Positions 12,817 to 40,494 of a stretch of DNA of 64,000 bases are shown here, piece after piece. Both the position numbers and the translations under genes were made by a program. The notes beneath the pieces are model-generated. The model made no database searches, had not been told where the DNA came from, and saw only the letters and a list, made by a program, of their open reading frames with translations. This DNA is from Patescibacteria group bacterium (lineage in GTDB: Bacteria > Patescibacteriota > Patescibacteriia > SBBC01 > CAIJZX01): positions 103,195 to 167,194 of the forward strand of contig JBBTRH010000005.1 of NCBI GenBank assembly GCA_038065275.1. Direction: 5' to 3'. Position 1 is the stretch's first letter. Every line of letters starts with the position of its first letter.

Positions 12817-12818
12817 TT

Positions 12819-14120: not shown

Positions 14121-14126
14121 GACGGA

Positions 14127-16732: not shown

Positions 16733-16862
16733 GACGGAATCAATAATCCGCACTAGTACTATACCACACAACACCGGTCCTGGCAACCCCGACGTTATAA
16801 GTTACATATCGTTACCGAGCGCAAATTCCGACCTGGCCGATCTGGAGAAAAGGGGGTATACT

Positions 16863-23243: not shown

Positions 23244-23969
23244 ATGGTTTGGCGTTCCGCCCTAGGCGGATTAGCTCAGTTTTTTATGTTCCTCGTCACC
23301 AAGTTCATCGATCTCATCTTCCCGCCGCTGTGCGTCCACTGCGGCCGCGAGGGCGCTTGGCTGTGCCTAACCGCCCAGACCAGCCTCAACCATGAACAAC
23401 TGTTGATTGATCCCCTGCCCATTCGCGGCGTGGATCGTGTCATCACCCGCGGCTCGTACGACTGCGAACCGCTAGCCCAGCTGATCCAGAAATTGAAATA
23501 CCACTACTGGACCGGCCTGTCCGAAGTGTTGGTTGGCGTCCTGGAACCATGCCGTTCGGAATTGTCCGGGCTGGCCGACGCGGTCCTGGTCCCGGTCCCA
23601 TTACACCGGCGCCGCCAGCGCGAACGAGGGTTCAATCAATCGCTCCTCATCAGCCAGGCCCTGCGTCGCGTCACCGGCCGGCCAATCACACCCCTGCTGG
23701 CCTGCATGAAGTACACCGCTCCGCAGGCGCGCTTGTCGGCCGTTGCCCGGCTGACGAACATGATCGGCGCCTTCGGACGCGACCGGCGGGTTGCCAGCCA
23801 CCGTCGAACTACGCGCGGCGAGGCCCCGCCTGCTGGCGGTGGGTGGCCGTCATCTGTTATACTCGTCGATGACGTCATCACCACCGGATCGACCATGGCC
23901 GAGTGCGCGTCGGTTCTTCGACAACACGGTGTCCGCGACATTACGGCCGTGGCGCTGGCGAAAGGGTAA
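23244..23969 (+). CDS. comFC: competence protein ComFC (zinc ribbon plus phosphoribosyltransferase domain)
   Basis: CVHCG..WLC ribbon. PRTase motif VILVDDVITTGSTMAE. Confidence 0.75.
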   Translation: MVWRSALGGLAQFFMFLVTKFIDLIFPPLCVHCGREGAWLCLTAQTSLNHEQLLIDPLPIRGVDRVITRGSYDCEPLAQLIQKLKYHYWTGLSEVLVGVLEPCRSELSGLADAVLVPVPLHRRRQRERGFNQSLLISQALRRVTGRPITPLLACMKYTAPQARLSAVARLTNMIGAFGRDRRVASHRRTTRGEAPPAGGGWPSSVILVDDVITTGSTMAECASVLRQHGVRDITAVALAKG

Positions 23970-24084: not shown

Positions 24085-24360
24085 ATGACATATGTTTATT
24101 TCTTACTGCTAAATAATGGTACAATCTACAAGGGCGCGACCGAATCGGTTAAACACCGTCTCGTAGAACATCGCTCCGGCCAAGTCAAATCGACGAGAAG
24201 TTACCTACCAGTGGTATTACTCGGTTATGAAGCATACAAATTGTCCAGCGACGCTTATCGAAGAGAACGATTTCTTAAAACAACCGAAGGTCGCAGGTTA
24301 TTACGTCAACAGTACCGGGATATTATTCAGGAAGAAATTATCAAACTAAAAACAACCTAA
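24085..24360 (+). CDS. GIY-YIG nuclease superfamily small protein, second copy
   Basis: YVYFLLLNNGTIYKGATESVKHRLVEHRSG. Flanked by two copies of the tRNA-Ser 5' fragment. Confidence 0.6.
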   Translation: MTYVYFLLLNNGTIYKGATESVKHRLVEHRSGQVKSTRSYLPVVLLGYEAYKLSSDAYRRERFLKTTEGRRLLRQQYRDIIQEEIIKLKTT

Positions 24361-24526: not shown

Positions 24527-24617
24527 GGAGAGGTGGCCGAGTGGCTGAAGGCGGCAGGTTGCTAACCTGTTATAGGGGGTTAAACCCTTATCGCGAGTTC
24601 GAATCTCGCCCTCTCCG
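24527..24617 (+). tRNA. tRNA-Ser (anticodon GCT)
   Basis: Full cloverleaf read by eye. Acceptor GGAGAGG/CCTCTCC, anticodon loop TTGCTAA, long variable arm, T-loop TTCGAAT. No encoded CCA. Confidence 0.75.
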
Positions 24618-25148
24618 CTCTGGTGCGGTGACTAACCTGTTATACGGGGTTAAACCCGTCCGGTCATCCGACCGGACGTCAGGGGTTAATCCCTTGACGT
24701 ATCGTGGGTTCTCCGCCTCCGTACCGCTTCGGCGGCACTGCGGCGGATCCGTCCGAAGTTGCCGCAGTAACGGAGGCGGAAAATTCCACCCTCTCCGCCC
24801 TGGGATGGTAAAATACTAAATCCTAGTCCGGTCGGATGACCGGATCGCCCTCTCCGCTCTGGGCAATAACGTCAGTTTGCCGACCACTGCCGAGCACTCT
24901 CGGCGGGGCCCGCCCGAAGGCGGTGGGTGGTCTTCCGCCTACGTCTGTCGGACTTCGGCGGATCCGCCCTACTTGACCGAAGTGAGCGGAGGCGGAAAAA
25001 CGATGGTCTTGTCACCGCACCAGAGCGGAGGAGTGCCGGAGTCCCCGAACCACTAATGGGTTCGGGGCAGGGGTTGAACGGGGCAGTCTTGTCACCGCCT
25101 TTGGCGGAAGGTTGGCTGAGTGGTCTAAACACAATTCATGGGGAGAGC

Positions 25149-25235
25149 GGAGGCGTGCGAGAGTGGTTGAATCGGGCAGTCTTGAAAACTGCTAGACCCG
25201 CAAGGGTCTCGTAGGTTCGAATCCTACCGCCTCCG
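25149..25235 (+). tRNA. tRNA-Ser (anticodon TGA)
   Basis: Acceptor GGAGGCG/CGCCTCC, anticodon loop CTTGAAA, variable arm AGACCCGCAAGGGTCT, T-loop TTCGAAT. Confidence 0.65.
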
Positions 25236-25366
25236 CTCTCCTTGTGAGTCTTGCCCGGCGGAGCCGGGTCCGGCTCTGCCGGAAAAACCGGAATACCCGC
25301 AAAGGATATCGAAAATTCCCCGCCCGCCCTTCCTATCCCCCCCTTCTCGGTTCTCAGCCGCTTCGT

Positions 25367-26082: not shown

Positions 26083-26159
26083 GCGCCCGTAGCTCAGTTG
26101 GATAGAGTACAAGCTTGCGGAGCTTGGGGTCGGAGGTTCGAATCCTCCCGGGCGCACCA
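26083..26159 (+). tRNA. tRNA-Arg (anticodon reads GCG; CCA encoded)
   Basis: Aligns position by position to E. coli tRNA-Arg(ACG), except for anticodon loop TTGCGGA. Confidence 0.8.
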
Positions 26160-26235: not shown

Positions 26236-28395
26236 ATGTCCCTCACTACCCCGATTGCGAAACTGCCGCGCATGCAGTCGGCGATCGCCGGGAAATTCGC
26301 GCAACTCGGGTTATTGACGCTCCGCGACGCGTTGTTCTATTTCCCGTTCCGGCATGAAGATTGGCGGCAACGGTCGACCATCAACGCGTTAGCGGTCGGA
26401 CAGGAAGTGACGGTGGCCGGGATCGTCGCGACCGTCAAATCGCGGCGGGCTTGGCACCGGCGCGGAACGACGATTACCGATGTGACCATGACCGACGACC
26501 GCCCTGAACCATCCGGTCCGGGGCGGAGCGTCGCCAAGTTGCACGTCGTCTGGTTTAATCTGCCGTTCCTGGGAACTAGCCTGAAACCGGGCGATCGACT
26601 CTACGTATCGGGGACCGTGATCACCGCCAAGGACGGCCGGCTGCAGATGAACAATCCGGTTTACGAACGGCCCAGTGACGACCCGCTCCATCAGCGGTTG
26701 GTGCCGGTCTACCGCACGACTGACGGTTTATCGCAACGGCAGTTGCGGCTGGCGGTTAAACAGGCCGTCAGTTTGGCTAATGTCGTTCCGGACCCCCTGC
26801 CCGCCGCCGCGCTCTCGGAGCTTCCGGCGGAGCCAGGCGTAGCCTGGCAGGCCGGACCCAGCCTGCCCGGCTCTGCCGGGGCTTCGCCGGGCAACCTGCT
26901 CCCGTTGCCGGAGGCGCTAACACAGATTCATTTTCCCGATACCCCGGACCTCGCTCACCGCGCCGTGGAACGGCTGAAGTTCGACGAGCTGTTGTCATGG
27001 CATCTGCGGATGGTGGCGGCGAACAACGCTATCGGTCGGCATCAGGCGCCGGTCATCCCCTTCCACGAAACCGAAATCCGCTCGTTCGTCCAGCACCTCC
27101 CATATGCCTTAACCGATGACCAGCGGGTCGCCGCTTGGCAGGTGCTCCAGGACTTAGCCCAGCCCCGGCCGATGTCCCGTCTGGTGCAAGGAGACGTTGG
27201 TTCGGGGAAAACCGTCGTGGCCGCCCTGGTCGCCTACAACGCCGCCTTGAGCCACTTGCAGGTGGCGCTGGTGGCGCCGACCGTGGTCTTAGCTGAACAA
27301 CACCGGCAGACGTTCATCAGCATGCTCGGCAAACACGCCACGCGGCTGGCGCTGTTGACCGGACAAACGGCCACTATTTTTTCCGCCGGTACGGCCACGG
27401 ACGTTTCCCCCCGGGAGTTACGCGAGTCCCTGGCCCGCGGCACCGTCGATATCATCATCGGCACTCACGCCGTGCTCCAACCGGACGTAGTCTTCCATCG
27501 CTTGGGCTTGGTCATCGTCGACGAACAGCAACGTTTCGGCGTTGACCAGCGGCAAGCCTTACTGGCCGGCCGCGACGAGACGCCGCACTTTCTCAGCCTG
27601 ACCGCCACGCCCATCCCCCGCAGTTTTGCGCTGTGGCTGAGCGGCATCCTGTCGATCAGCACCATCGCCACTAAACCGCCCGGCCGGGCGCCGATCGTCT
27701 CCGCGGTGATTGGGCCGCCGGAACGAACTGCGGTTGATCGAACGATCGCCGCCACCGTCGCCCGCGGCGAACAGGTCTACGTCATCACACCGTTGATTGA
27801 GGAATCCGACAGTCTCGGCGTGCGAGCCGCGACCGGCGAACACCAACGGTTAACTGCGGTCCTGCCGCGCGCCCGCGTCGGCCTGCTCCACGGCGCCATG
27901 CCGGCGGACGACCGCCTGGCCGAATTGGAACGCTTCCGGCGCCGCGAGCTTGACGTGCTCGTCAGCACCACCGTCATCGAAGTCGGCGTTGATGTGCCGA
28001 ATGCCACGCTGATGGTGATCGAGGGCGCCGAACGGTTCGGCCTGGCCCAGCTCCACCAGCTTCGCGGCCGGGTTGGCCGTGGGACGGCGCCCAGCCGCTG
28101 TTTGTTCGTCACTGATCGCGACGCGCCCGAAGTCCGCCGACGGCTGGAGCGCGTAGCCACGATGACAGACGGTTTTGCCGTCGCCGAGCTCGACTGGCAG
28201 GAGCGCGGCGGCGGCGACCTGTACGGTCAGCGGCAGTCCGGCTTACCGGCTTGGCGGTTGGCTAGCTTGAATGACCGCCGGCTGTTCGAACGCGTCCGCG
28301 CTTATGTCAGCCGCCTGTCGGCTGAAGAGATGACGCAACTCGAACACGCCCTGGGCGAAGACGAACCAGCCACGGGCGCGTGGCATCCGGAGTAG
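26236..28395 (+). CDS. recG: ATP-dependent DNA helicase RecG
   Basis: Wedge domain. Helicase motifs GDVGSGKT, DEQQRFG, C-terminal HQLRGRVGRG. Start at MSLTTPIAK. The upstream part of the ORF overlaps tRNA-Arg and is not believed. Confidence 0.85.
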   Translation: MSLTTPIAKLPRMQSAIAGKFAQLGLLTLRDALFYFPFRHEDWRQRSTINALAVGQEVTVAGIVATVKSRRAWHRRGTTITDVTMTDDRPEPSGPGRSVAKLHVVWFNLPFLGTSLKPGDRLYVSGTVITAKDGRLQMNNPVYERPSDDPLHQRLVPVYRTTDGLSQRQLRLAVKQAVSLANVVPDPLPAAALSELPAEPGVAWQAGPSLPGSAGASPGNLLPLPEALTQIHFPDTPDLAHRAVERLKFDELLSWHLRMVAANNAIGRHQAPVIPFHETEIRSFVQHLPYALTDDQRVAAWQVLQDLAQPRPMSRLVQGDVGSGKTVVAALVAYNAALSHLQVALVAPTVVLAEQHRQTFISMLGKHATRLALLTGQTATIFSAGTATDVSPRELRESLARGTVDIIIGTHAVLQPDVVFHRLGLVIVDEQQRFGVDQRQALLAGRDETPHFLSLTATPIPRSFALWLSGILSISTIATKPPGRAPIVSAVIGPPERTAVDRTIAATVARGEQVYVITPLIEESDSLGVRAATGEHQRLTAVLPRARVGLLHGAMPADDRLAELERFRRRELDVLVSTTVIEVGVDVPNATLMVIEGAERFGLAQLHQLRGRVGRGTAPSRCLFVTDRDAPEVRRRLERVATMTDGFAVAELDWQERGGGDLYGQRQSGLPAWRLASLNDRRLFERVRAYVSRLSAEEMTQLEHALGEDEPATGAWHPE

Positions 28396-28397
28396 GA

Positions 28398-29942
28398 TCA
28401 CCGGCCGTTGGCGCAGGCCGTAGCGTAGGCCTGTTTGAACTCAGCCATATAATTCTTTGCGTTCGCCCGGATCTGCTCAACTTTTGATCGGTCTTTGAGG
28501 AACGTAGTTGAGCAGAAACTGTCTGATGCGCCGCCGAGACCCTGGTTGTACGCCGCGGCCGCCAGTAGAAGGTTCTTTTGGACGCAACTTTGATTAAGAA
28601 GTTGCTGGCCGTAGTAATCGGAGATCATCTGCACCTGGGCTTGCATCCCGGAAATTCCCGTACCCATTTTTCCGGCCGTTCGTTTATCCAGCCAGGCTTT
28701 GCACGACTGGCTGATATGCTTTCCGTCGCAATCATACACCTCTTCGTGGGTGCATGTAGCTGGATCGGTGACGGTGGCGGTCCGACATCCCGGAGGCAAC
28801 CCGCCTGGATTGACTTTTTTTAACACCTCAACTAAAGTCGAAACTTTAAATTGTCCGAGTCCATATCCCGGCCCGGGCTGACCGTTGTCGGTCTTCCCCT
28901 CCGGGCCGGAGAATGGTTGTCCCTGCGTCGTTTTCGGACTCTCAATGGCAATGATTGCCTTGATGGCAAAAGCATCGAGATCTTTGTCCTTGCGCGCTAC
29001 GTACTGGATCACTGCGTTCAGATCGATGCATCCATAGTCAACGGCGCCGTTCTCTCCAGCTCCCGCAGTCGGACCGCTACAAGCTTTACTCGGTTCACCG
29101 GCAACTAGTTTTTTCGTGCAACGCGGTAGTTCACCGACTGAGGTGAGTAAATTATTAAGGTAGCTGGCTAATTCCTTGTCAATATAGCTCAACCCAATGC
29201 CGCGGAAGCTGGTTAGTCGCGGATTGATGGTGTTCAGCAGGACGACGGATACTAGGGCGATCAGCACGCCGATGATGGCGTCGTTGATGATCCCGCGCGC
29301 GTCGTTAATCCGGCCCGGATTTCCCGCCGCCGCGACCCATTTGATCCCGCCGTAGACGACCATCACCGTCGCCAGGATCCCGACCGCCCAGACGAAAGCG
29401 ACGAAAATAACCCTGATGTACTCGGCGATGGTGGTGTCGGAAATGTTCCACACCCCCTCTAAAAGTCCGGGGATAGTCAACTCGGGCTTGAAGGTCAGCG
29501 CGTCGGACGCCGCCGAGGCGGCCGGCGGTGTGGTAGGCTGGGTCGTCGGCGCGGTGGCTGGACAGGTTCCGCCGATGGTAAAAAAATAGCCGGCGTTCCG
29601 ACGTTCGTCCGTTTCACATTGAGCGCGGCTGGCCGCAAAACAACTATACGACGGACTGTATGTGACGCAGCGTCCAGTTTCTCCTTGCCGCCGCCACTCA
29701 ACGCATGTTCCGGCGAAGAACTTCCCCGCCGCGTACACGTCAATTCCGCCCCAGGCCTGCTTACAGGCATCAAAGGTCAGATCAACGCAGTCCGGACTGC
29801 CGACGTAGCCCGGCGGATTCAGACAGGCGCCCGTGACGCTTTGGGCCTGCACCTCGCGCGGCGGACGGAATCCGCCGGCGGCGACGGACAGGCCCGCCGT
29901 CACGGCTAGGACCAAACAGACAACCCGCGGGTAACGTGGCAT
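28398..29942 (-). CDS. secreted fusion protein: Cys-rich N-domain, VirB2/TrbC-pilin-like hydrophobic hairpin (..AAGNPG..), C-terminal lytic transglycosylase (SLT) domain
   Basis: YIRVIFVAFVWAVGILATVMVVYGGIKWVAAAGNPGRINDARGIINDAIIGVLIALVSVVLLNTINP. SLT motifs IAIES, GLGQF, AAYNQG. Convergent with recG (2-nt gap). Confidence 0.5.
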   Translation of the reverse strand: MPRYPRVVCLVLAVTAGLSVAAGGFRPPREVQAQSVTGACLNPPGYVGSPDCVDLTFDACKQAWGGIDVYAAGKFFAGTCVEWRRQGETGRCVTYSPSYSCFAASRAQCETDERRNAGYFFTIGGTCPATAPTTQPTTPPAASAASDALTFKPELTIPGLLEGVWNISDTTIAEYIRVIFVAFVWAVGILATVMVVYGGIKWVAAAGNPGRINDARGIINDAIIGVLIALVSVVLLNTINPRLTSFRGIGLSYIDKELASYLNNLLTSVGELPRCTKKLVAGEPSKACSGPTAGAGENGAVDYGCIDLNAVIQYVARKDKDLDAFAIKAIIAIESPKTTQGQPFSGPEGKTDNGQPGPGYGLGQFKVSTLVEVLKKVNPGGLPPGCRTATVTDPATCTHEEVYDCDGKHISQSCKAWLDKRTAGKMGTGISGMQAQVQMISDYYGQQLLNQSCVQKNLLLAAAAYNQGLGGASDSFCSTTFLKDRSKVEQIRANAKNYMAEFKQAYATACANGR

Positions 29943-29945
29943 GCC

Positions 29946-31196
29946 TTAGCGCAGTTGAACGCGCTGAATTGTGCCGGTGGCGGCGTCGGTGAAGAACAAA
30001 CTGCTCTCGTCGGCGGCCACTCGCAGGTTGGCGGCGCTGAAACGCTGGTTCTTATTCTGGTCAACCGGCCGGGCGACCAGCCCGACCGTGCCGGTGCGGA
30101 GATCGACTCGATAAATGTTGTCCGGGATGCCCCGCGAGAGTTCCGGCTGGGGTCCCGAGCCGGGATTGTAATAGTACGGCACCGCGCAATAAACCGACGA
30201 CCCGCTCGAGGCGAAAGCGCACTTGTCGGCGCTGGTGTCGAGGCCGAGGTCGAGGGAGTTCGTCCCTAAGCTTTCCGGCGAGCCGTTCATCAGATACAGG
30301 TGCGGATTGTCGTTGGTCAGCGGACTGTAGGCGCTGTACAGCAGTTTGCGGCCGTCCGGCGACCAGGCGGGAGTGAACCCGCGACCGGCGACGTTGACCG
30401 AGGGAAAGTTCTCGTTGTTGGCGCCCAAGAAAATGATTTCCTGCTGGTCGCCGCTGGTCGACTTGGCGTAGCTGGCGATAATCTGGTTGTTCGGCGACCA
30501 GGCGACCGTCACTTTATCGGCGTTCCCGCCGAGATGCTCGGCCGTCTGCGACTGCGTGCCGTCCGGCTTGCTGACCACCAGCCACTGGTTTTCTTCATCG
30601 CGCGGGTCGAGGTACTTGGCGGCGATCTGGTCGGACTGCGGCGAGAACGAAAAGTTGTTCAATTCCGACGGCAGGGTGGTCTGCTTCTTGGCGGTGAAAT
30701 CGTAGAGGACTTTCGATCCGTCCGGAAAACCGAGAATGGCCTGGTTGCCGTTCGGCGCCCAGTCGACCGACCGGACATCGGGATAGGGGTCGGTCGTCAG
30801 CGGCGTTTTTGTCGACCCGTCCGGGCTGATCTTGTAGAACAATCCCGAGGCGCGGTCATAAAACTGGAGGTCGCCGTTGTCCGGGTTGACCGCCAGCCCC
30901 CCGGCCGGACCGGTCGTCACCGGACTGGCGAAGGTGGCGCCGCCGTTGGCCACATTGCTCGGTTCGGATATCGGCGCGTTCACGGCCGGCAGAGCGTTGA
31001 CGTTCCGCGCCGGCCGGACGCGGTTGGCGTTGCCATTCTGTGGGCTGGGCAGGCCGTTGGTGATGCCGCCGGGGCGGTTGGTGGTTACCGGCGTGCCGCC
31101 CGGCCGGAAAAAGACGTACCAAATCAGGAAAAAGAATCCAACCACAACCAGGGCGAAGGCGGTGATGAAGAGAGATTTTTTTAGGCGATCGTTCAT
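29946..31196 (-). CDS. TolB-like beta-propeller protein, N-terminal membrane anchor
   Basis: Repeated WAPNG/WSPDG propeller-blade motifs. Probable start MNDRLKKSLFITAF (ATG 31196). Confidence 0.55.
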   Translation of the reverse strand: MNDRLKKSLFITAFALVVVGFFFLIWYVFFRPGGTPVTTNRPGGITNGLPSPQNGNANRVRPARNVNALPAVNAPISEPSNVANGGATFASPVTTGPAGGLAVNPDNGDLQFYDRASGLFYKISPDGSTKTPLTTDPYPDVRSVDWAPNGNQAILGFPDGSKVLYDFTAKKQTTLPSELNNFSFSPQSDQIAAKYLDPRDEENQWLVVSKPDGTQSQTAEHLGGNADKVTVAWSPNNQIIASYAKSTSGDQQEIIFLGANNENFPSVNVAGRGFTPAWSPDGRKLLYSAYSPLTNDNPHLYLMNGSPESLGTNSLDLGLDTSADKCAFASSGSSVYCAVPYYYNPGSGPQPELSRGIPDNIYRVDLRTGTVGLVARPVDQNKNQRFSAANLRVAADESSLFFTDAATGTIQRVQLR

Positions 31197-31204
31197 TGGA
31201 GAAT

Positions 31205-32218
31205 TCAATAAATCTTCTCGTGCGGACAAGTTTTACCCGGACAGCAAATATTGGGTATAAAATCTATTCCAGTTTGGGACTTTTCCGGTTTGGTTTTCGG
31301 GCCAACCAGGTAGCACTGGGGGTCAACATTTTCACCTGCCGATATATAACTACCAGCACACCACGGCCAGACTCCATCACGAGCTGGTGCAATGACACCG
31401 CAGTATCCCCGTAGCTGAGCCACGAACCAAAAATTAGTAGCTTGACTAACTTCCCATGTTCCACCTTCTTCCTTGGCTAAGACGTCCGTACACCCTTGAT
31501 GCGGTTTATAGTTGTTTTTTGAATCCATCTTAAGGGAACAAATATTTGTGTGTTCAGCGAAACCCGCGGCACCGCCCCGCGAACATGTCGTGCCCATGCA
31601 ATAATCGTCAACTTCCTTATCTTTACCGTCAACCTTTACTTTTACCGTACCGATTTTTTTCACCTCACCGCAGGTTATTCTTGGTTCGCTGGGGCAGATT
31701 ACCAGGGCGCGGACACCTTCGAAGTATTTTACCGAAATGGACGTTAGCCCTGGGATAGCTAACTGCGTAAGTTTCGGGTTGATAATGTTCAACAGCACGA
31801 CCGACACCAAAGCGATCAGCACCCCGATGACCGCGTTGTCAATAATGTCTCGCGCCTCTTTGATCTGACCGGGATTGCCGGCGGCGGACACCCAACGTAT
31901 CCCGCCGTACATGACCATCACCACCGCCACGATGCCGACCACCCAGACGAAGTAGATGTAGATCGCCCGGATGTAACGCGTCAGCAGGGTGTCGTCGGCG
32001 TTCTGCTCGCCGGTGAATACGACCGGGATGGGAATTTCCGGCGTGAACTTTTCGGATTTATCCGCCGCGGCCGGTTCCGCCGCGGCCGCACTGGGTTTGC
32101 TTTGGGCTTGCACCTCGCGCGGCGAACGGAATCCGAAGATGGCGACGGACAGGCCTGCCAGCATGGTCAGAAACACCGCTAGAGTGATGGCCGCGTTTCT
32201 TACGTGCGGAGCAGTCAT
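31205..32218 (-). CDS. VirB2/TrbC-pilin-like protein, paralog of 28398..29942, with Cys-rich C-terminal domain
   Basis: YIRAIYIYFVWVVGIVAVVMVMYGGIRWVSAAGNPGQIKEARDIIDNAVIGVLIALVSVVLLNIINP. Its leader FRSPREVQAQS and a 45-bp stretch of DNA are near-identical to the paralog. Confidence 0.45.
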   Translation of the reverse strand: MTAPHVRNAAITLAVFLTMLAGLSVAIFGFRSPREVQAQSKPSAAAAEPAAADKSEKFTPEIPIPVVFTGEQNADDTLLTRYIRAIYIYFVWVVGIVAVVMVMYGGIRWVSAAGNPGQIKEARDIIDNAVIGVLIALVSVVLLNIINPKLTQLAIPGLTSISVKYFEGVRALVICPSEPRITCGEVKKIGTVKVKVDGKDKEVDDYCMGTTCSRGGAAGFAEHTNICSLKMDSKNNYKPHQGCTDVLAKEEGGTWEVSQATNFWFVAQLRGYCGVIAPARDGVWPWCAGSYISAGENVDPQCYLVGPKTKPEKSQTGIDFIPNICCPGKTCPHEKIY

Positions 32219-32273
32219 CCGAGGCAAGCGTTGATCATGACGGTAGATGGTGGGCATGGTCGGTACGAGAAGT

Positions 32274-34526
32274 TTACTGGCCGGTGAAGAAATTGACAAT
32301 AGCTCCGATCGTCTTCAGTCCGAGTTTAGCGGCTTCAACGGGATTGGCGATAAGCCAAAGAAAGACAAAAATGAAGCCGTAAATGACTCCGGTCCAGGCG
32401 GCGACAATCATGAATTTCATGTGCCGCACGTAGTCGATCGGGTCGCTGATGCTGTAGCCGGGGATGAGTTGGACCGATACGCTCGTGTCCGGTTGATTGG
32501 CGGCGCTGTCCGGAGGCGGACGGGCGGTGATTTCTTTCGTGAACATATTGCCCATCATGTTTCCGCCCATCCACCGCAGGAGGTAGAGGCCGACGACCAC
32601 CGGACCGGAGAAAAGAAACAGGTCGGTCATGGACAGGGCTTGATCCTCGGCCACTTCTTGAGCGATTTGCCAGCCCCGTTTGTAGATTTTTTCGAGTCGT
32701 TCTTTTTCCGACTCATACTGCACCGGAATCTGCTTCGCCTTCTGCCCCGCTTGGATCGCCTGCCGCTGGCGGGCGCGGTCGGCCGCTTCAAATTGCGCCC
32801 GCCGCTGGGCGGCGAGTTTCTGCGACCGGAGTTCCTGGGCCATCATCTCCGGTGATTGTCCTTCCGCGTCTCCGGCCGCCTCCGGCGCGGTAGTGTCTTG
32901 AAATTCCGACGACTCTTCGGCGCTCGGCGCGGTGCGCTCCGTCGGGGTGGCGGCCGGAGTCGGGGCCGGCGCGGTGAACGGTTGATATTCTTCATCGACT
33001 CCCTCGAGCCGGCCGCCGCCGACCATTTCAGGCGGTCGAGGTTGGTCAGTCGGCACCGGTTGTTGTGCAATTGGTGTCGGAACCTTGGCTTCCGCCGCTG
33101 GAGCTTCCGGACTTGGGGTTTGGACGGGAAGTGTACTGCTAACTGGCACTCCTTCGACCGTGGCTTCAAACTCGGGCGGCGCGGCCGGCACGCTCGGCCG
33201 GTAGGCTTGGTGGTCGGGGTGTGACGGCGGGGGCGCGGACGGCGGCGGTGACGTCGTCTGGGCCGGTTGGCCGATTTGATCTGCCGGTAATCCCGGCGGC
33301 CCGGATGGCGCAGGTTCAGCGCCGCCGGCTATCGGTTCGACGCGCCTGGGAGAAATTGCCGGGTGAACACCGGTCTGGGCGAAAGCGGGCGATGGGGTCT
33401 GGTCAACCGGAGTCGTAGCTGGCGCCGGCCCACTGCCTCGAGGCGTCGCCCGCCGCGGACGTCGTCCATAACGCGGTGACGCTGATGGTGTTGCCACTGG
33501 CTGGCCGGTGGTGGGCGTCGGTTCGGACACTCCCGTCGGAGTAGCGCCGGTTGGAGATGGCCCTCCCTCCTCCTCTCGCCCCTCGCGCCGTCGCCAAAGC
33601 GGCTTTGGCGCGTCGGCGACCTCGGGCAGGAGGGGTGTAATACCTCGCCCATCTTCTGGCGGGGGGGGTGTGATGCCTTGCCCCTTTTCTGGCGGGGGGA
33701 GCGTGACGGGTGACTGTGGTGTACTTTCTTGTATTCCTGGAACCAGTAGCACTGTAGCCGGAGCCGCGCCGGCCGTGTCGGCTGAGACGTCGATACTGGG
33801 AACCTCGGCATTGATTCCTGGCGGAGTTTCTCCGACATCGGGTATTGTCACCGTCGGCGGAATCGAGGGCGGTACCGGACTGACCGGCGGAACTTCACTG
33901 CGCGGTTGAACCGGCAGTGTTGGAGTCACCGCGGTTGGCCCGGCGGACGATGCGGCCGGCGGTCCAATCGGCGGTGTAGAAACTCGCGGCGGGATTGGCG
34001 GAGCTGACACTCGGGCCGCTGGCGGCGCAGTATCGGTCACCGGCGGCGTGACTAAACGCTCAACCGCTTCCACGGCTTCGAGATGCCGATCCATCAACCG
34101 GTGCTGTTCGTTGGCCGGCAGATGCAACGATCTCGTCAGGTCACTGCTGGGGATGACCGGATCGAGCGCGACGACGCTGTGGCCGCTTGGTTCAAGGCGG
34201 CCGCGGTACACCCGGCCATTGCGCTTGACGTAGATCGGCCGGCCGCTCGAGCGCGCGGCGGCCAGCAGGCGCGCCGTGGCGATGCCGGTGTCATTGACAA
34301 TCCGGCCGTCGTTATCGAGCGTCACAAAATAGCCGGACACGATGTCCGGTTCATCGCCCCGGCCGGGAGCGACGACCACGCCGATATCCGTCTCGCCGAT
34401 GGCCGGATTCGGCTCGTCAGGCGGCGCGGTGGCGGGCTTGTCAGTGCGCTTGCCGCGCACCGCGGCTGAATCGTTTACCGCGGAGTCGGTTGTTTGGTCG
34501 AGTTCATCATCGACAACGGTGGCCAT
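32274..34526 (-). CDS. proline-rich membrane protein (750 aa), C-terminal TM helices; possible VirB10-like scaffold
   Basis: Long P/T/A-rich low-complexity region, then a coiled coil and three C-terminal TM segments. Confidence 0.4.
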   Translation of the reverse strand: MATVVDDELDQTTDSAVNDSAAVRGKRTDKPATAPPDEPNPAIGETDIGVVVAPGRGDEPDIVSGYFVTLDNDGRIVNDTGIATARLLAAARSSGRPIYVKRNGRVYRGRLEPSGHSVVALDPVIPSSDLTRSLHLPANEQHRLMDRHLEAVEAVERLVTPPVTDTAPPAARVSAPPIPPRVSTPPIGPPAASSAGPTAVTPTLPVQPRSEVPPVSPVPPSIPPTVTIPDVGETPPGINAEVPSIDVSADTAGAAPATVLLVPGIQESTPQSPVTLPPPEKGQGITPPPPEDGRGITPLLPEVADAPKPLWRRREGREEEGGPSPTGATPTGVSEPTPTTGQPVATPSASPRYGRRPRRATPRGSGPAPATTPVDQTPSPAFAQTGVHPAISPRRVEPIAGGAEPAPSGPPGLPADQIGQPAQTTSPPPSAPPPSHPDHQAYRPSVPAAPPEFEATVEGVPVSSTLPVQTPSPEAPAAEAKVPTPIAQQPVPTDQPRPPEMVGGGRLEGVDEEYQPFTAPAPTPAATPTERTAPSAEESSEFQDTTAPEAAGDAEGQSPEMMAQELRSQKLAAQRRAQFEAADRARQRQAIQAGQKAKQIPVQYESEKERLEKIYKRGWQIAQEVAEDQALSMTDLFLFSGPVVVGLYLLRWMGGNMMGNMFTKEITARPPPDSAANQPDTSVSVQLIPGYSISDPIDYVRHMKFMIVAAWTGVIYGFIFVFLWLIANPVEAAKLGLKTIGAIVNFFTGQ

Positions 34527-34535: not shown

Positions 34536-35093
34536 CTATTTCCACACCGCCGCGCTGACTTTCCAATCGGCCCCAACTTTGACCAGGTCTATTAATAAGT
34601 CTTTGGTTTGGACGGTCGCGGCCGTCCCGACCGTGACCGTTTGCTGGGTGGCCACGACCACCGACGCGGCCGCGGTTGTTTGCTTCAGCACGTTGAACAC
34701 CAGCGCCCGGGTGACGGTGCCGTGGTACTCCTTCGGCGGCGGGGCTGATCGCGCCTGGGCTATCTGCGCGCCGAGGAAATCGCCGTAGGCGGCGGTGGCG
34801 TACGCTTGGGCGTCAGTCAGATTGCGACCGCCGTTCTGATTCGATCCACTGCCGTACCGTTCGGTGAAGTTCCGCGCCACGTAGATTATGGCTTGACGAT
34901 CCGGGGTATAGGGCGAGCGGTTGGCGTTGGCGGGCGCGTCGGTCGGGCGATTGGTGACCGGCGGCGCGGTATTAGTCACCCGGTAGACGGCGTTCTGGAG
35001 ACGCGGGCTCCGGGTGACGCTGAGGATGATAACCAGGGCCAGGCCGATCATGACGACCAGGGCCGAGGCGAAAAAGATGATCCGGCGTCCCAT
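34536..35093 (-). CDS. bitopic membrane protein, hypothetical (VirB8-position)
   Basis: 185 aa. N-terminal TM. Sits directly downstream of the VirB4 genes. Confidence 0.35.
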   Translation of the reverse strand: MGRRIIFFASALVVMIGLALVIILSVTRSPRLQNAVYRVTNTAPPVTNRPTDAPANANRSPYTPDRQAIIYVARNFTERYGSGSNQNGGRNLTDAQAYATAAYGDFLGAQIAQARSAPPPKEYHGTVTRALVFNVLKQTTAAASVVVATQQTVTVGTAATVQTKDLLIDLVKVGADWKVSAAVWK

Positions 35094-35096
35094 CGG

Positions 35097-37025
35097 TTAG
35101 GCGTTTAACGGCGGAGCTGAGTCCATCACCGTCCCGGCGCCGGTGGCGACGCCGGCGCTGGCCGACTGCTCGAACTCCTTCTTCGCCGCTTCGATCTCGA
35201 GCAGCTGCTGCGGGTTGGTCGTCACGATCTGGTCCTCGGCAATCGAGGCCACGATTTTGATGGCGGCGTGCTTGCTGCCGGCGAAGAAAATCCCCTCCCC
35301 CAGGCCGGATTCGAGGAGCAAGTAGCGTTCCTGTTGGGTCAGGAGGAAAGTCTTGGTGACGATGTCGATGGCGGCCGGCGACTGTTTCATCAGCAGGGTC
35401 AAGGCCGAGTTGTTGATGATCGCCTGGCCGTAGGGGCTGAGCAAAAAGTCGTTGACGTCCTGGGTAATCGTGGTCACGCCGAGGTAGTACTTGCGCGAAC
35501 GTTTGACCAGGCCGTAGACGAACTTGGCCGAGTCTTCGTGCTGCATCAGCCACCAGGCTTCGTCAATCACCAGGATGCGGCGTTTCAAACTTGACCGGGC
35601 CAGGTTCCAGATGTAGGAGATGATGATTGACATGCCGATCGGCCTCAGCTCGTCCTCGAGGTCGCGGACGGAGAAGACCACCAATTGGTTGTTCAGCTCG
35701 ATGTTGGTCGGGCTGTTGAACAAGCCGGAGAAGGTGCCCTCGGTGTACTTCTTCAGCCGTTCCACCAGGCTGTCCGCGCCGGTCATGCCGCTCAAGACTT
35801 CCTGGAAATCAGCCATCACCGGCGTTTCGACGTTGGCCAGGTCGGCCTCGGGAGTGATGTCTTTCTTGGCGTATGTTTCCAGCAGGGCGCGATCAACGAT
35901 TGAATCTTCTTCATGGGTCAAGGCGCCGAGCATCAGGCGAAACATCGACTTGAGCGTGATGACCGCCGAGCGGATGATGTCGGCCGTCGTTTCGTCGCTA
36001 CTAATCGCCCGCGGCAAGTCGAAGGGGTTGATTTTGCTCTCAGCGTTGAGCGAGACATTGATGTAGGTGCCGCCGACCGCGTCGGACAGATACTTGTATT
36101 CGTGCTCCGGGTCGATGACGATGATGTCGGTGCCGAACATCATCGCCCGGATGATTTCCAGCTTGACGGCGTACGACTTGCCCGAACCGGCGGTGGCAAA
36201 AACGGTGTAGTTCGGGTTCTGCAAGCTGAAGCGGTCAAACAGGATCAGCGAGTTGTTATGCCGGTTGATGCCGTAGAGAATGCCGCTGTCCGAGGACAGG
36301 TCGGCGGAGATGAAGGGGAAGCTCGAAGCGATCGGCGAAGAGTTCATGTTGAACGTCACCTGGAGCTGGTCCACCCCGACCGGCAGAGTTGAGGCGAATC
36401 CTTGTTCGGTCTGGAAAAAGGCGCGCTTGGAAAACACCAGTCGCGAACCGAACAGCCCTTCGATCCGGCCGGTCAGGTTCTTCAGCTCCTCCACGGAATC
36501 GGCGTAGAGCGTGACGTACAGGGCGAACTGGAAGAATTTTTCCGTCCCTTGGGTCAGGTCGTCGCGTAGCTTCTCGATGTCCCGCAGGGCAGTCTCGCGC
36601 ATCGGGTCGCGCGGGGCGCCTTTTTCGCTGTCGGTAATCAACTGGGCTTCGAGGGCGCCGACTTTGTTCTTCAGCTGTTTCAGGATGATGTCCGACGGCA
36701 CCGGATAGAAGAACATGGCGATGTCCAGCGGGGTGTTGTAGTTGATGATCGGCGCAAACCAGCCGACGGAAATGTAGCGCGGGTAGGTGACCACAAACAG
36801 CGTCTGCAGGTATTTGCCGTTCAAACGGAGGAACGTCGGATCAACCTTCATCGCCGCCGGCGCGATCAAGTCGCGGACGGTGACCACGCCCTGGCGGTAA
36901 ACGCGCTCCGCGGTAATCAGTTCGCGCTCGTCCGACGGGCGGCTGACAGTCGGAGTCGGCGGCGGAGCGCCGGCCGCCTGATCGCGGAGGATGTCCGGTC
37001 GGGAGAGGTTAACGTTGGTGGGCAT
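35097..37025 (-). CDS. VirB4/TrbE-family T4SS ATPase, C-terminal ATPase portion
   Basis: Walker A FATAGSGKS. Walker B ILVIDEAWWL. 642 aa. Confidence 0.75.
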   Translation of the reverse strand: MPTNVNLSRPDILRDQAAGAPPPTPTVSRPSDERELITAERVYRQGVVTVRDLIAPAAMKVDPTFLRLNGKYLQTLFVVTYPRYISVGWFAPIINYNTPLDIAMFFYPVPSDIILKQLKNKVGALEAQLITDSEKGAPRDPMRETALRDIEKLRDDLTQGTEKFFQFALYVTLYADSVEELKNLTGRIEGLFGSRLVFSKRAFFQTEQGFASTLPVGVDQLQVTFNMNSSPIASSFPFISADLSSDSGILYGINRHNNSLILFDRFSLQNPNYTVFATAGSGKSYAVKLEIIRAMMFGTDIIVIDPEHEYKYLSDAVGGTYINVSLNAESKINPFDLPRAISSDETTADIIRSAVITLKSMFRLMLGALTHEEDSIVDRALLETYAKKDITPEADLANVETPVMADFQEVLSGMTGADSLVERLKKYTEGTFSGLFNSPTNIELNNQLVVFSVRDLEDELRPIGMSIIISYIWNLARSSLKRRILVIDEAWWLMQHEDSAKFVYGLVKRSRKYYLGVTTITQDVNDFLLSPYGQAIINNSALTLLMKQSPAAIDIVTKTFLLTQQERYLLLESGLGEGIFFAGSKHAAIKIVASIAEDQIVTTNPQQLLEIEAAKKEFEQSASAGVATGAGTVMDSAPPLNA

Positions 37026-37740
37026 GGTCGTCTTTGATGCTGGAAGTCTCTTCGAGGGTAATCTTGGCGGCGGGTTGGAGCGGCTGGGCGCGCGAGGTTT
37101 CCGGATTATAGGTGTTGTAGTACAGCTCGATCAGGTCCTGGGTGCGGAGGAACAACGATTTCAAGCCGGCCGAGCTGAGCGCGTTGGCGACGTTGTCGAC
37201 CCGCTTGAAGAGCTCGGTGCGGTACTGTTCGAACTGCTTCTGCTTGAGGTGGATGGTGGCCGTCGGCCGGAAGGTGTCAAACAGGCGGGTGAAGAACTTG
37301 CCGGGCCGGTCGACTTTCGGCGTGTAGGGCACCACTACGTAGAACCGCTTGGTCATGATGTCCGAGCCGGCCACTAAGTCGCTGACGAATTGCCGATAGT
37401 CGCGGATTTGCAACTGCAGGAGTTCGTTGGTCTGTTGTTTTTCCGTCGTCTTGAGGGTGGCCAGGTAGCTGTCGATGTTCAATCGCCGCGACTGGATGAC
37501 GATTTGGAGCGGGTAATCAATGGTGTTGAGGAAGGAGGTGTAAGCGGCGATCACCGCGTCTTGCTCTTCGTCCGACTTGAGCATGAAGTTGATCGAGGCC
37601 ACCAGCATCACCGCCACCACGCTCCCGTTCCGGAGGATGACCGTGTCATCGCGGATCTCCAGGATGTCCAGGTACTGCTGGGTCGAGGGGGTGGTTTTTT
37701 GGCGGCGGGGCTTGACCGCGGATGGGCGTGGCGGAGGCAT
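37009..37740 (-). CDS. VirB4-family N-terminal domain as a separate ORF overlapping the ATPase ORF by 17 nt
   Basis: DILEIRDDTVILRNGSVVAVMLVASINFMLKSDEEQDAVIAAYTSFLN resembles Gram-positive VirB4 (TraE/PrgJ-type) N-termini. Confidence 0.5.
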   Translation of the reverse strand: MPPPRPSAVKPRRQKTTPSTQQYLDILEIRDDTVILRNGSVVAVMLVASINFMLKSDEEQDAVIAAYTSFLNTIDYPLQIVIQSRRLNIDSYLATLKTTEKQQTNELLQLQIRDYRQFVSDLVAGSDIMTKRFYVVVPYTPKVDRPGKFFTRLFDTFRPTATIHLKQKQFEQYRTELFKRVDNVANALSSAGLKSLFLRTQDLIELYYNTYNPETSRAQPLQPAAKITLEETSSIKDDHAHQR

Positions 37741-38420: not shown

Positions 38421-39920
38421 CTAGACCTGAAGTTGGCGGTTAAGATCGGCGACCACGGTGAATTCGTGTTCGGATAGATAGGGCTGGCCGCGGCGGCCGC
38501 GGTCAGCGATAATCTGCGAAATGGGTTGGCCTAGTTCCAGGCTGTCCCGCCCCATGGACACGTACAGCTGGAAGACGTCGCTCTGCCGCCAACCGGCGAC
38601 CGCTTCCACCCAGACGGTGAATGACTCGCGCTGGAAGTGCTGGAACTTGTCAAGCAACTTGCGCGCCACCTCGGTCGCGCCCTGTCCCAGGCGTCGGAAC
38701 TCCAGCAAGGTCAGACTCCGCATTTCCTCGCCCGGACCAAGGGCCAGGGTCGGACGGACCACGTCGGCCACGGTCGGACGGTCGGTCAGGCGCGCCCCCG
38801 TCATCACGGTCGCGGCCGGGCGAGCGGGCGGCGGCGCCGGCCGGGGGATCGTCGTGGGCGTCGTCGCGGGCGACGGAATATCGGCCGGACGAATAATCGG
38901 GCGGCTCGGCCGCGGCGGTTCGGTCACGTTCGGCGGGATAACCGGCGCCGCCAACGGCGCGTCGCGGCGTAGCGGCGGCAACGGGGGCGGCGGCGCCTGG
39001 ACGACTGACGGGACGACCGGCGGGCGGGGCGGTTGAGGCGTCGCGGGCGTCTGGACCATGCCGCGCGATTTCAATTCGCCGGCGGAACGCTCCGCCGCCG
39101 CCGCGACCTGAGCGGCGATATCCGGGTCCAGGCCGAGTCCGCCGACTTTCGGATCGCGGGTCAGCAGGTCGGCCGTGGCCCCCGTCTGGCGGATATTTTT
39201 CAGGCGGGCCTTAATAATTGATACCGCGCGGCGACTCAGGAGTTCGTCGGCGAAAGCTAGGTTCTGCGCGGTCAGAATCGTCCGGGCCAGGCTGTCGAAA
39301 TCCTGGTTCGGATTAACGGTCGTCAAGGTCCGCAACTTCGCCGCCTGACGTTCGATTTCCGCCGCGTCATCATCGGAGTACTGGGTGATCGGCGCCTGAC
39401 TGCCGACCGGCGCAGCCGGGGTCAGCCAGGGAGCGGTCGGCGGTCTGATCGCGGCGACCGCCGGCGCGGTCTTTGGCGGTGGCCCGGGCGGCGCCGGCGG
39501 TCGGCTCGGAGCGCTCTCCGCCACCGGCAGATTCACCGGCGGGGCTGATCGCGGTGCGGGGGATACCGGCTGACGACCGGCCGGTGGAGCGGACGGCGGT
39601 TGAGAGGCGGGTTTCAAACCCGCCTCTTCGCCCCGGGCCAGCCCAAGATAATCCGCAATGTCGCCGACGAAGACTTCCTGCCGCAACCGCCGGGAAACCT
39701 CTTCGGCCGCCGGCCGATCGAGCGAGCATTCGGCCTGCAGTTTGGCCGACAGCTCACCGACCGGAAACTCGTGCACCACGACCCGCATGATCAGGTTCGC
39801 CAAATCGACCCCCGGGTACCGCTGTTCAAGGTCATCAACGGTGGCGATGGCTGACGGGGTCGCGACGCCGTCCCGAATCGCTTTCGGCAAGCTATGGAAT
39901 TGTTGCCAGATATCGACCAT
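38421..39920 (-). CDS. hypothetical protein (499 aa, central Pro-rich linker)
   Basis: First gene after structured-repeat copy 2 and the TGCTATAAT promoter. Confidence 0.5.
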   Translation of the reverse strand: MVDIWQQFHSLPKAIRDGVATPSAIATVDDLEQRYPGVDLANLIMRVVVHEFPVGELSAKLQAECSLDRPAAEEVSRRLRQEVFVGDIADYLGLARGEEAGLKPASQPPSAPPAGRQPVSPAPRSAPPVNLPVAESAPSRPPAPPGPPPKTAPAVAAIRPPTAPWLTPAAPVGSQAPITQYSDDDAAEIERQAAKLRTLTTVNPNQDFDSLARTILTAQNLAFADELLSRRAVSIIKARLKNIRQTGATADLLTRDPKVGGLGLDPDIAAQVAAAAERSAGELKSRGMVQTPATPQPPRPPVVPSVVQAPPPPLPPLRRDAPLAAPVIPPNVTEPPRPSRPIIRPADIPSPATTPTTIPRPAPPPARPAATVMTGARLTDRPTVADVVRPTLALGPGEEMRSLTLLEFRRLGQGATEVARKLLDKFQHFQRESFTVWVEAVAGWRQSDVFQLYVSMGRDSLELGQPISQIIADRGRRGQPYLSEHEFTVVADLNRQLQV

Positions 39921-40200: not shown

Positions 40201-40494
40201 TTAGCTCAGAGCTACGTACAATCGATCGGCTTCGGCTTGGACCGTCGGACCGTCATACTCGCCGCTGTGCTTATGAAACCCCTGGTAGGAGGGTTGTTTC
40301 TGATCGAGATGGAGGTTGAGACGGAGCTGGTCGCCCTGGTCCTCGAGGTAGAGGTGGAAGCGCGGGTAGAAGTGCGTCCCCAGCCGCCGCAAGTAGGAAC
40401 GCTCGCCGCTCCGCGGGTCGCGGAACGGAAAGTACCCGACGCGGCGGAGAACGACGTCGGACTGATAGGCCGGGCGCGGGACGCGGATGATCAC
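40201..40494 (-). CDS. small His-rich hypothetical protein
   Basis: 97 aa. ATGA overlap with the upstream gene suggests translational coupling. Confidence 0.35.
   Translation of the reverse strand: MIIRVPRPAYQSDVVLRRVGYFPFRDPRSGERSYLRRLGTHFYPRFHLYLEDQGDQLRLNLHLDQKQPSYQGFHKHSGEYDGPTVQAEADRLYVALS

Follow-up and report, generated by a model that had tools for sequence, protein, structure and literature searches.

Two genes in the present locus raise the question of why a protein with the membrane hairpin of a type IV secretion system (T4SS) pilin should be several times longer than a classical pilin, and what its additional domains, one of which resembles a peptidoglycan hydrolase, would do for such a system. 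The genes lie on the minus strand of a 64,000-nucleotide (nt) stretch of the metagenome-assembled genome of an ultrasmall bacterium of the Patescibacteria (contig JBBTRH010000005.1 of assembly GCA_038065275.1; the whole stretch is called the 64-kb window below), on either side of a beta-propeller gene, and the three are referred to as pilin-X, propeller and pilin-hydrolase. On sequence evidence, both flanking genes encode hairpins of the PF18895 pilin family that bear predicted extracytoplasmic domains, one of them of the GH23 family. The three genes come last, at the 3' end, in a T4SS operon of Gram-positive type that also has VirB6, PrgI/VirB3 and a split VirB4, and the block is conserved in order and variable in content.

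Organization of the operon

The operon and its right-hand border comprise the following features.

26236-28395, plus strand: convergent recG, a conserved border on the right of the cassette; domains RecG_wedge, DEAD and Helicase_C
28398-29942, minus strand: downstream pilin-hydrolase gene, 514 amino acids (aa), NCBI name 'MAG: pilin', last gene of the operon
29946-31196, minus strand: PD40 beta-propeller gene, 416 aa when started, like its orthologues, at the ATG at 31196
31205-32257, minus strand: upstream pilin-X gene, 350 aa, NCBI hypothetical AAB402_01675
32274-34526, minus strand: Pro-rich protein with a C-terminal transmembrane (TM) segment, T4SS operon
34536-35093, minus strand: 185-aa protein, N-terminally anchored, T4SS operon
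35097-37025, minus strand: VirB4, CD1110 family (359.5 bits vs a cut-off of 325)
37009-37740, minus strand: VirB4 N-terminal (TraC-like) part as a separate open reading frame (ORF), 243 aa
37746-38237, minus strand: PrgI/VirB3, T4SS operon
38421-39920, minus strand: 499-aa protein, T4SS operon
40491-41186, minus strand: 231-aa protein, T4SS operon
41190-44273, minus strand: TrbL/VirB6, T4SS operon

The pilin-hydrolase, propeller and pilin-X ORFs are closely packed, all on the minus strand, and the recG stop lies 2 nt away from the pilin-hydrolase stop. Both pilin ORFs had been described in a first-pass annotation made from the letters of the sequence, and their positions are confirmed, on this strand; the length of 338 aa given there for the second protein holds from an ATG at 32221, whereas the NCBI start at the ATG at 32257 gives 350 aa. 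The longest pilin-X ORF begins at a TTG and spans 31205-32299 (364 aa), and a TTG start stretches the propeller ORF to 31229 (427 aa). The TraC-like ORF overlaps virB4 by 17 nt. Since this split of virB4 is kept in 10/10 related genome loci (nine from a scan of GTDB genomes and a tenth, L010, from a look-up of the closest homologue), it is not a frameshift artefact.

Neither a coupling protein nor a relaxase was found among the scanned window ORFs of at least 150 aa. Within the T4SS operon, Pfam recognised no wall hydrolase besides the pilin-hydrolase, and no dedicated protease was recognised there. The relatives of the 514-aa protein come mostly from Candidatus Kerfeldbacteria, a group placed in class ABY1 by the Patescibacteria T4SS survey of Quinonero-Coronel et al. 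2025 (PMC12102498). The same survey reports recG/comF adjoining T4SS genes in class ABY1 (PMC12102498), and the window resembles these published loci in its recG and comF context.

Pilin cores, leaders and topology

The 514-aa protein consists, in this order, of a signal peptide, a Cys-rich N-ectodomain, a T4SS_pilin hairpin and a diverged GH23/SLT domain, and pilin-X of a leader, a T4SS_pilin hairpin and a Cys-rich, beta-rich C-terminal domain. Their parts are located as follows.

29844-29942, minus strand: leader (Sec signal peptide) of the pilin-hydrolase, residues 1-33, hydrophobic core 7-25 by hydropathy
29553-29843, minus strand: Cys-rich N-ectodomain of the pilin-hydrolase, about residues 34-130, with 8 Cys and a Pro/Thr/Ala linker after it
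29196-29492, minus strand: pilin core of the pilin-hydrolase, residues 151-249, with the motifs FKPELTIPG and LLNTINP
28401-29195, minus strand: C-terminal cargo of the pilin-hydrolase, residues 250-514, diverged GH23/SLT-like, 10 Cys
31757-32050, minus strand: pilin core of pilin-X
31208-31756, minus strand: C-terminal cargo of pilin-X, about 180 residues, 12 Cys

The T4SS_pilin family PF18895 (gathering score 26.6 bits) is matched above threshold by both proteins, with 34.2 bits over residues 169-238 of the pilin-hydrolase and 38.0 bits over residues 105-173 of the 364-aa ORF of pilin-X, the latter having an additional weak match to the mycoplasma 'pilin-like conjugal transfer protein' family. 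These scores, together with the position of both genes on the same strand and in the same operon as VirB4, PrgI and VirB6, bear out the pilin-like hairpins proposed at first pass, and the motifs quoted for them and for the enzymatic domain (YIRxI, YGGI[KR]WV[AS]AAGNPG, IGVLIALVSVVLLNxINP and ES/GLGQF/AYNQG) are all present. The family that had been put forward for checking, TrbC/VirB2 (PF04956), is however matched by neither window protein at E<=0.1, and the pilin assignment comes via PF18895; two relatives match PF04956 in the same region below threshold (16.7 and 19.7 bits vs 27.9; E=0.001 and 0.009). The two window proteins align with 48% identity over 156 aa (BLASTP E=3e-31), and a leader segment is also common to both (18/26 aa identical, BLASTP E=6e-7). 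Nucleotide identity is 74% across 209 nt of the cores and 82% across 77 nt of the leaders.

Both proteins display a leader followed by two hydrophobic helices that enclose a short basic loop, as evident from hydropathy and from the AlphaFold2 models. In the pilin-hydrolase, hydropathy places TM1 at residues 178-196, the basic loop YGGIKWVAAAGNPGRINDAR after it and TM2 at 218-236, and the model has helices at 169-204 and 209-239. In pilin-X the hydrophobic stretches are 23-41, 98-116 and 138-156, with modelled helices at 89-125 and 129-159; each pair forms a long helical hairpin. Candidate signal-peptidase sites of the pilin-hydrolase lie, judging from the sequence, after A22 (VAA) or A33 (VQA). 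Its N-ectodomain is homologous only to the relatives P0003 (87%), P0033 and P0019, and is modelled with a predicted local distance difference test score (pLDDT) below 50.

If the basic loop is cytoplasmic, the domains on either side of the hairpin would be extracytoplasmic, and the distribution of Cys agrees with this. The pilin-hydrolase has 19 Cys, of which 1 is in the leader, 8 in the N-ectodomain (residues 40-127), 10 in the C-terminal part (275-510) and 0 in the hairpin; the 12 Cys of pilin-X are all beyond residue 188, and 152 single-core relatives have a mean of 0.01 Cys in the core vs 10.3 in the C-terminal extension. We infer that the flanking domains of both proteins are outside the membrane, with the hairpin loop in the cytoplasm. 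The signal peptides and Cys-rich domains described earlier stand accordingly as hydrophobic N-terminal leaders and Cys confined outside the hairpins, and the topology prediction proposed along with them returned a leader, two further helices, a basic loop and Cys-rich flanks.

In size the two proteins (514 and 350 aa) depart from a classical VirB2, of which the precursor has about 100-150 aa and is mostly hairpin. A hidden Markov model (HMM) of the pilin core matches no ORF of the 64-kb window besides these two, and the same HMM, which detects a small stand-alone pilin in the related locus L007, detected none anywhere in the window. Such small pilin genes were observed just past recG in two related loci, as ORFs of about 112-115 aa (L007:14986-15330 and L001:13185-13520); the one in L007 scores 47 bits with PF18895 and matches the window cores at E=1e-7. 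A Foldseek search with the full-length model gave the Aeropyrum conjugation pilus 8dfu at E=9, which is not significant.

Diverged GH23 domain of the pilin-hydrolase

The C-terminal domain of the 514-aa protein carries a predicted catalytic pair, Glu334-Ser335 (codons 28938-28943), followed by the further SLT motifs Y360-G-L-G-Q364 and A462-A-A-Y-N-Q-G468. When 17 C-terminal homologues were aligned, E334, Y360, G361, G363, Q364, Y465 and G468 were invariant and S335 was conserved in at least 90%. The SLT family PF01464 is matched by 14/17 of these homologues (best 6.9e-8). A profile of the family, compared with PDB sequences, matched goose-type lysozyme (GH23; 3gxk) at E=0.004 over the ES and AYN motifs, and hhalign of this profile against the C-termini of canonical pilin-SLT fusions gave a probability of 86.7% (E=4.4e-6) with the ES, GLMQ-like and AYNxG motifs aligned. 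The canonical C-termini themselves match MltC, EmtA and Slt70 among PDB sequences, down to 8e-12.

The domain is modelled by AlphaFold2 with a pLDDT of about 90. Foldseek with the full-length model against BFVD returned an 'LT_GEWL domain' phage protein as the top match (E=0.042, probability 0.77); in full-length queries of this kind, disordered N-termini and long helices probably dominate. From the motifs and the family-level matches we assign the C-terminus to GH23 as a diverged member, in which an insertion containing Cys separates motifs II and III. The SLT domain of the first-pass annotation is upheld by its motifs and by homology at the family level, but the Pfam score of the window protein itself is below threshold. 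The proposed fusion of a VirB1-like with a VirB2-like protein survives as a GH23-family domain on a PF18895 hairpin, without a PF04956 match.

Synteny and interchangeable cargo in relatives

The gene order is the same in 10/10 loci: 231-aa, 499-aa, PrgI, TraC-like, VirB4, 185-aa, Pro-rich TM, pilin-X, propeller and pilin-hydrolase. Convergent recG adjoins the pilin-hydrolase in all 10 related loci reaching that far, and the pilin genes are linked to virB4 in 10/10. PF18895 is passed by 18/18 flanking genes of the first nine loci, and for the tenth (L010) the family is on record for both. The triad is also intact in the closest metagenome loci.

The cargo, by contrast with the order, varies. 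In the downstream slot it is SLT-like in 6 loci (the window counted) and Peptidase_M23 in 4 (L010 counted), and one orthologue adds N-terminal Beta_helix and Big_7 domains in a 1010-aa ORF; the upstream slot holds Cys-rich domains from at least 2 unrelated families. One closely related metagenome locus has Peptidase_M15_4 in the downstream slot, and metagenome loci retrieved by way of the propeller have a canonical SLT domain (about 75 bits) or a GDSL lipase/acylhydrolase as cargo. A 758-aa pilin-core protein of this last kind (L058:5252-7525; GDSL lipase/acylhydrolase, 56 bits) shows that the range of cargo extends past classical peptidoglycan hydrolases.

A HMMER search run exhaustively with the 105-residue core returned 14,644 cluster representatives at E<=1e-3 and 1,191 at E<=1e-10. 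Every one of the best 150 representatives has 278-1147 aa; a pilin domain embedded in a large protein, called atypical at first pass, is so in comparison with classical VirB2, but is the rule in its own subfamily. By Pfam, 127 single-core relatives comprise 126 with T4SS_pilin, 15 with Peptidase_M23, 9 with SLT and 4 with Peptidase_M15_4, and the search for proteins of the same architecture that had been advised yielded both pilin-SLT and pilin-M23 proteins.

Two further observations were made among the relatives. Two to 6+ tandem pilin cores occur in a single polypeptide in 31/183 retrieved proteins, such as P0077 (six cores in 552 aa), P0074 (four cores and a canonical SLT domain), P0092, P0095 and P0107; these could be polytopic proteins or pilin polyproteins. 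The loci L001, L006 and L007 come from Third Party Annotation (TPA) metagenome-assembled genomes titled 'uncultured Gammaproteobacteria bacterium'. Their operon is of the type found in the Candidate Phyla Radiation (CPR), with a VirB4 82-83% identical to that of the window, and the label of these assemblies is probably wrong.

Strain-variable island

The content of the block differs even between close strains, as became evident on comparison of the window with its closest relative, the sister strain L010 (GCA_964359265.1).

28395-33360: strain-variable island, comprising the 3' part of the Pro-rich/TM gene, pilin-X, the propeller and the downstream pilin gene

Nucleotide identity is 99-100% from 39,960 to about 33,400, drops to 68-95% between about 33,360 and 28,395, and is again 100% from the recG stop codon, at which the island edge is sharp. 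Within 28395-29214 there is zero homology between the two strains, the window having the SLT-like domain and L010 a Peptidase_M23 domain. The left breakpoint of this cargo swap lies right after the second hairpin helix, at residues ~243-257. The M23 motifs HxxxD and HxH are legible in P0003.

The proteins outside the island are nearly identical, with 99.7% aa identity and a synonymous divergence (dS) of 0.04 for VirB4, and 99.4% and 0.016 for RecG. The corresponding values are 70.5% and 0.49 for pilin-X, 95.4% and 0.21 for the propeller, and 88% and 0.23 for the N-terminal half of the pilin-hydrolase. This raised synonymous divergence suggests recombinational import rather than fast local evolution. 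The surface-exposed block of pilin-X, propeller and pilin-hydrolase is the strain-variable part of the operon.

Apart from the main island, two small patches of lower identity to L010 were also observed, one at the virB4/185-aa junction (34861-35160, 92%) and one inside the Pro-rich gene (32764-33360, ~90%), and the recombination history of the region may be mosaic. An exact-match scan of metagenome contigs with the 54-nt 3' end of recG, aimed at more strains of the species, gave 0 matches.

C-terminal domain of pilin-X and the PD40 propeller

The C-terminal domain of pilin-X is modelled by AlphaFold2 as beta-rich (pLDDT 75-87), and about 8 of its Cys are conserved in the family alignment. It has no recognisable catalytic motif, no Pfam or PDB-sequence match, and nothing below E=1 in a Foldseek search of the PDB with the full-length model.

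The propeller protein has an N-terminal TM segment (19-37), a Pro/Asn-rich linker and PD40 blades, with a PD40 repeat at 23.8 bits vs a threshold of 20.9 and a match to TolB 7mx5 (E=2e-5 over ~120 residues). The 'TolB-like' gene reported between the pilins is sustained as to the PD40 repeats, but a true TolB was rejected, the TIGR02800 equivalog scoring 34 bits vs a cut-off of 343. The PD40-type blades are the feature shared with TolB. The propeller differs from it in the TM anchor and Pro/Asn-rich linker that replace the TolB N-terminal domain, and the window organism is monoderm, without a Tol-Pal context. A propeller lies between the two pilin genes in 10/10 related genome loci, at 42-95% identity; in 80 metagenome loci, large pilin-core ORFs stand beside a propeller homologue in only 32. 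At L023:2838-5957 and the similar L037, which belong to CPR lineages further removed, a homologue of 36-40% identity occurs between PilM/T2SSM-like and ComF-like genes, with no pilin-fusion genes near it. That the propeller is exclusive to T4SS loci was rejected on the count of 32/80 and on these distant homologues.

Age of the paralogue pair

The close likeness of the leaders had been read as recent duplication or gene conversion. A recent tandem duplication, by which the two paralogues would have no separate roles, could account for leaders 82% identical in DNA and for a within-genome leader similarity score of 86 against a background of 28 +/- 10. The tree of 20 cores rejects it: in eight genomes the downstream cores cluster as a single clade that leaves out the upstream cores, and only the two most distant genomes pair their own cores together, which makes the duplication old. 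Core identity is 54-74% within genomes and averages 53.5% for non-orthologous pairs between genomes. The C-terminal domains of the two window proteins are moreover unrelated, and every related locus has both genes with their order unchanged, so that a recent duplication retains hardly any probability. The leader score is high in only 2/10 genomes (the window, and L001 with 106), which fits occasional 5' gene conversion or shared constraint, but not recent duplication. Local gene conversion of the 5' leader is plausible, and the 'nearly identical' 45 bp of the first-pass annotation reflect a real similarity, although they lie within a longer stretch of 82%.

Proposed function and its alternatives

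The reading that we favour, and to which we give about an even chance, is that the hairpin is an anchor or docking module that holds the VirB1-equivalent hydrolase of this T4SS, while the paralogue shows a binding domain and the propeller acts as a scaffold. Each protein would be exported by Sec, after which the leader would be removed. The hairpin would insert with both ends out, leaving the basic loop (K201, R211, R216) cytoplasmic as it is in VirB2, and would dock the protein onto the VirB4/VirB3/VirB6 machine. The GH23 domain would then cut glycan strands by the machine, opening the wall of the producing cell itself to the T4SS or a pilus-like stalk, which is the role of VirB1. Pilin-X would display its Cys-rich beta domain, probably a binding module, and the membrane-anchored propeller would probably scaffold both ectodomains. 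By gene position and predicted topology, the 514-aa protein is a putative peptidoglycan hydrolase inside a T4SS operon that would be exported and anchored outside the membrane. SLT, M23 and M15_4, the cargo found in the downstream slot and in single-core relatives, are also enzyme classes of Gram-positive VirB1-like proteins (PMC12857230). Among Patescibacteria genomes that have VirB2-like genes, the majority contain no recognisable VirB1 (PMC12102498), and a pilin-fused hydrolase would explain its absence.

Several observations weigh against the anchored-hydrolase proposal. A divergence island in near-clonal strains is poorly explained by a purely housekeeping function on the own wall, and the swap of a glycosidase for an endopeptidase fits an outward-facing role at least equally. 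A profile of 21 pilin cores found no solved VirB2 or TraA pilin among PDB sequences, its best match, at E ~1 and treated as noise, being the hairpin of a sensory rhodopsin transducer; the label 'VirB2-like' rests, for this reason, on Pfam and the literature. As to the enzyme, PF01464 (gathering score 21.3 bits) scores the last 270 residues at 13.1 bits (E=0.072), below threshold, and has no match at E<=0.1 on the whole 514-aa protein. Neither Foldseek of the full-length model against the PDB (nothing below E=1) nor phmmer of the whole protein against PDB sequences gave a match. The sequence cannot separate a lytic transglycosylase from a hydrolytic muramidase, and the 'SLT' domain of PrgK turned out to be a muramidase (PMC12857230).

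An outward weapon or adhesin, which we consider possible though clearly less probable, would have the hairpins taken out of the membrane and built into a T4SS pilus or onto its tip, where the hydrolase and the Cys-rich domain would bind and breach the wall of the host bacterium that feeds the epibiont; the variable cassette would then set the host range. In F-type pili the two ends of the pilin point outward from the filament. The island between otherwise 99-100% identical genomes, with pilin-X at 70% and the SLT-like domain exchanged for M23, speaks for such a role, as do the diverse cargo classes (SLT, M23, M15_4, GDSL), the adhesin-like N-terminal domains of some orthologues (Beta_helix and Big_7, ~1000 aa) and the failure to find a small 'major' pilin in the window. 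T4SS and pilins are essential for the epibiotic growth of Saccharibacteria, for which a pilus has been proposed (PMC10633639; PMC12857230). No pilus, however, has been observed so far in these organisms, and ectodomains of 100-650 residues at both subunit ends would probably hinder helical packing. Phage pressure also diversifies surface proteins regardless of function, and Gram-positive VirB1-like hydrolases are equally modular and variable. A bolder form of the idea, which we hold to be unlikely, makes the block a swappable 'warhead' cassette in which a pilus-like stalk, which the hairpins would join or would form after processing, presents exchangeable SLT, M23, M15 and GDSL enzymes and Cys-rich binders to the host. 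If this were true, the allele of a strain would decide which host walls can be breached, and there would be a molecular handle on the essentiality of the T4SS in the epibiotic life of Patescibacteria.

The remaining alternatives concern the hairpin itself. Cleavage at the motifs that flank the core could release a pilin of ~100 aa together with a hydrolase or a binding domain, much as both termini are processed in RP4 TrbC and in VirB2. The flanking motifs FxPE[IL]x[IL]PG and LLNxI[NS]PxL are conserved across the family, and relatives with 2-6+ tandem cores per polypeptide, one with a terminal SLT (P0077, P0074), would suit a polyprotein. Tandem hairpins fit an uncleaved polytopic protein equally, the motifs may be structural helix caps and a dedicated protease was not among the genes recognised in the operon, so a pro-pilin appears improbable. 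It is more improbable still that the hairpins are generic two-TM anchors on housekeeping wall hydrolases unrelated to the T4SS, their pilin likeness being compositional. The match of the core profile to another TM hairpin and the lack of PF04956 matches in the window proteins would be expected of such anchors. The PF18895 match and the membership of a T4SS operon speak against them: the family is above its gathering score in both proteins and in 18/18 flanking genes of nine loci, it is matched by 126/127 relatives, the stand-alone pilin of L007 matches the window cores at E=1e-7 and the linkage to virB4 is strict (10/10 genome loci).

Comparison with known systems

Among classical pilins, VirB2, TrbC and TraA share with the window proteins the leader, the two hydrophobic helices, the short basic loop and the linkage to virB4. 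The window proteins differ from them in being 3-5 times longer and in being unmatched by PF04956.

CwlT of ICEBs1 is one of the Gram-positive VirB1-like hydrolases. Others of this kind, PrgK of pCF10, TraG of pIP501 and Orf14 of Tn916, use SLT/muramidase and LytM/M23 classes (PMC12857230). The 514-aa protein resembles them as a predicted membrane-anchored, extracytoplasmic, modular hydrolase of a T4SS operon. In contrast to the single N-terminal TM of PrgK, TraG of pIP501 and CwlT, it would be held by a two-helix pilin hairpin after a leader that is predicted to be cleaved, and it has one catalytic domain where the Gram-positive proteins have two or three; the similarity is restricted to the catalytic fold.

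In Agrobacterium, the lytic transglycosylase VirB1/VirB1* is functionally tied to T-pilus biogenesis and to VirB2, and the window fusion would, by analogy, be a 'Rosetta-stone' version of this link. VirB1/VirB1* and VirB2 are, however, separate proteins there, the VirB1 proteins being soluble and periplasmic in a diderm system, and no homology to the window fusion extends beyond GH23. Polymorphic toxin and effector loci combine a conserved N-terminal delivery module with a swapped C-terminal enzymatic domain. The sharp breakpoint at which an unrelated enzymatic domain is exchanged between near-identical strains may be likened to them, but here the exchanged domains are wall hydrolases, no immunity gene adjoins them, and the delivery module is a T4SS pilin hairpin.

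The closest published counterparts are the pilin arrays of Patescibacteria, such as the VirB2-like array SEML1_0006-0019 of Southlakia epibionticum (Wang et al. 2023, PMC10633639). The T4SS and pilin genes are essential in Southlakia, the one species tested (PMC10633639), and a recent review speculates on a pilus (PMC12857230). The window has in common with these arrays PF18895 and an MPF-FATA-like operon (VirB4, PrgI/VirB3, VirB6) with relaxase and coupling protein absent nearby. Whereas the published arrays are described as pilin genes, fused domains going unmentioned, the window cores sit in proteins of 350-514 aa (up to ~1000 aa in relatives) that add Cys-rich ectodomains and a wall hydrolase. 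Pilin-hydrolase fusions, the conserved triad and the variable cassette were not found described in the open-access papers and preprints searched, including PMC10633639 and PMC12102498, and the database names already given to such proteins are 'pilin' or 'peptidoglycan DD-metalloendopeptidase family protein'. With CPR T4SS pilin arrays already published, the pilin-hydrolase fusion and the variable cassette appear to be the new part.

A large part of bacterial diversity belongs to the Patescibacteria, which apparently live on other microbes. In this lineage a pilin-like hairpin would carry the 'missing' VirB1-type hydrolase as a fusion, and a fixed breakpoint marks where entire enzymatic domains are swapped in an otherwise clonal operon. 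This raises the hypotheses that the pilin module targets or anchors wall hydrolases and that the cassette determines specificity, and the fusions supply candidate enzymes for biochemistry. Should the function be housekeeping only, the fusion would still be a new architecture for T4SS wall hydrolases.

Other features of the window

Directly upstream of VirB6, four very large predicted surface proteins of 1563, 724, 1232 and 1927 aa are encoded at 44278-60631 on the minus strand. They contain fn3, Beta_helix, Big_7, BNR-like propeller and CBM_4_9 domains and may be adhesins of the same T4SS. About 20 kb from the T4SS lies a type IV pilus gene set (295-8275, minus strand), and large unannotated ORFs (8467-16786) come after PilM. 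The neighbouring genes are located as follows.

295-1506, minus strand: PilC/T2SSF
1678-2748, minus strand: PilT-like ATPase
3156-4910, minus strand: PilB with MshEN domain
7037-8275, minus strand: PilM
23244-23969: ComF-like phosphoribosyltransferase protein, a neighbour of the cassette
24527-24618: tRNA-Ser-GCT
25149-25236: tRNA-Ser-TGA
26083-26159: tRNA-Arg-GCG

The mechanical start of the recG ORF, at 26068, overlaps the tRNA-Arg gene, and the orthologues begin near 26236. Between the ComF-like gene and the tRNA genes, a 91-aa ORF (24085-24360, plus strand) looks by eye like a GIY-YIG nuclease (YVYFLL...G.IYKG.T....R..EH).

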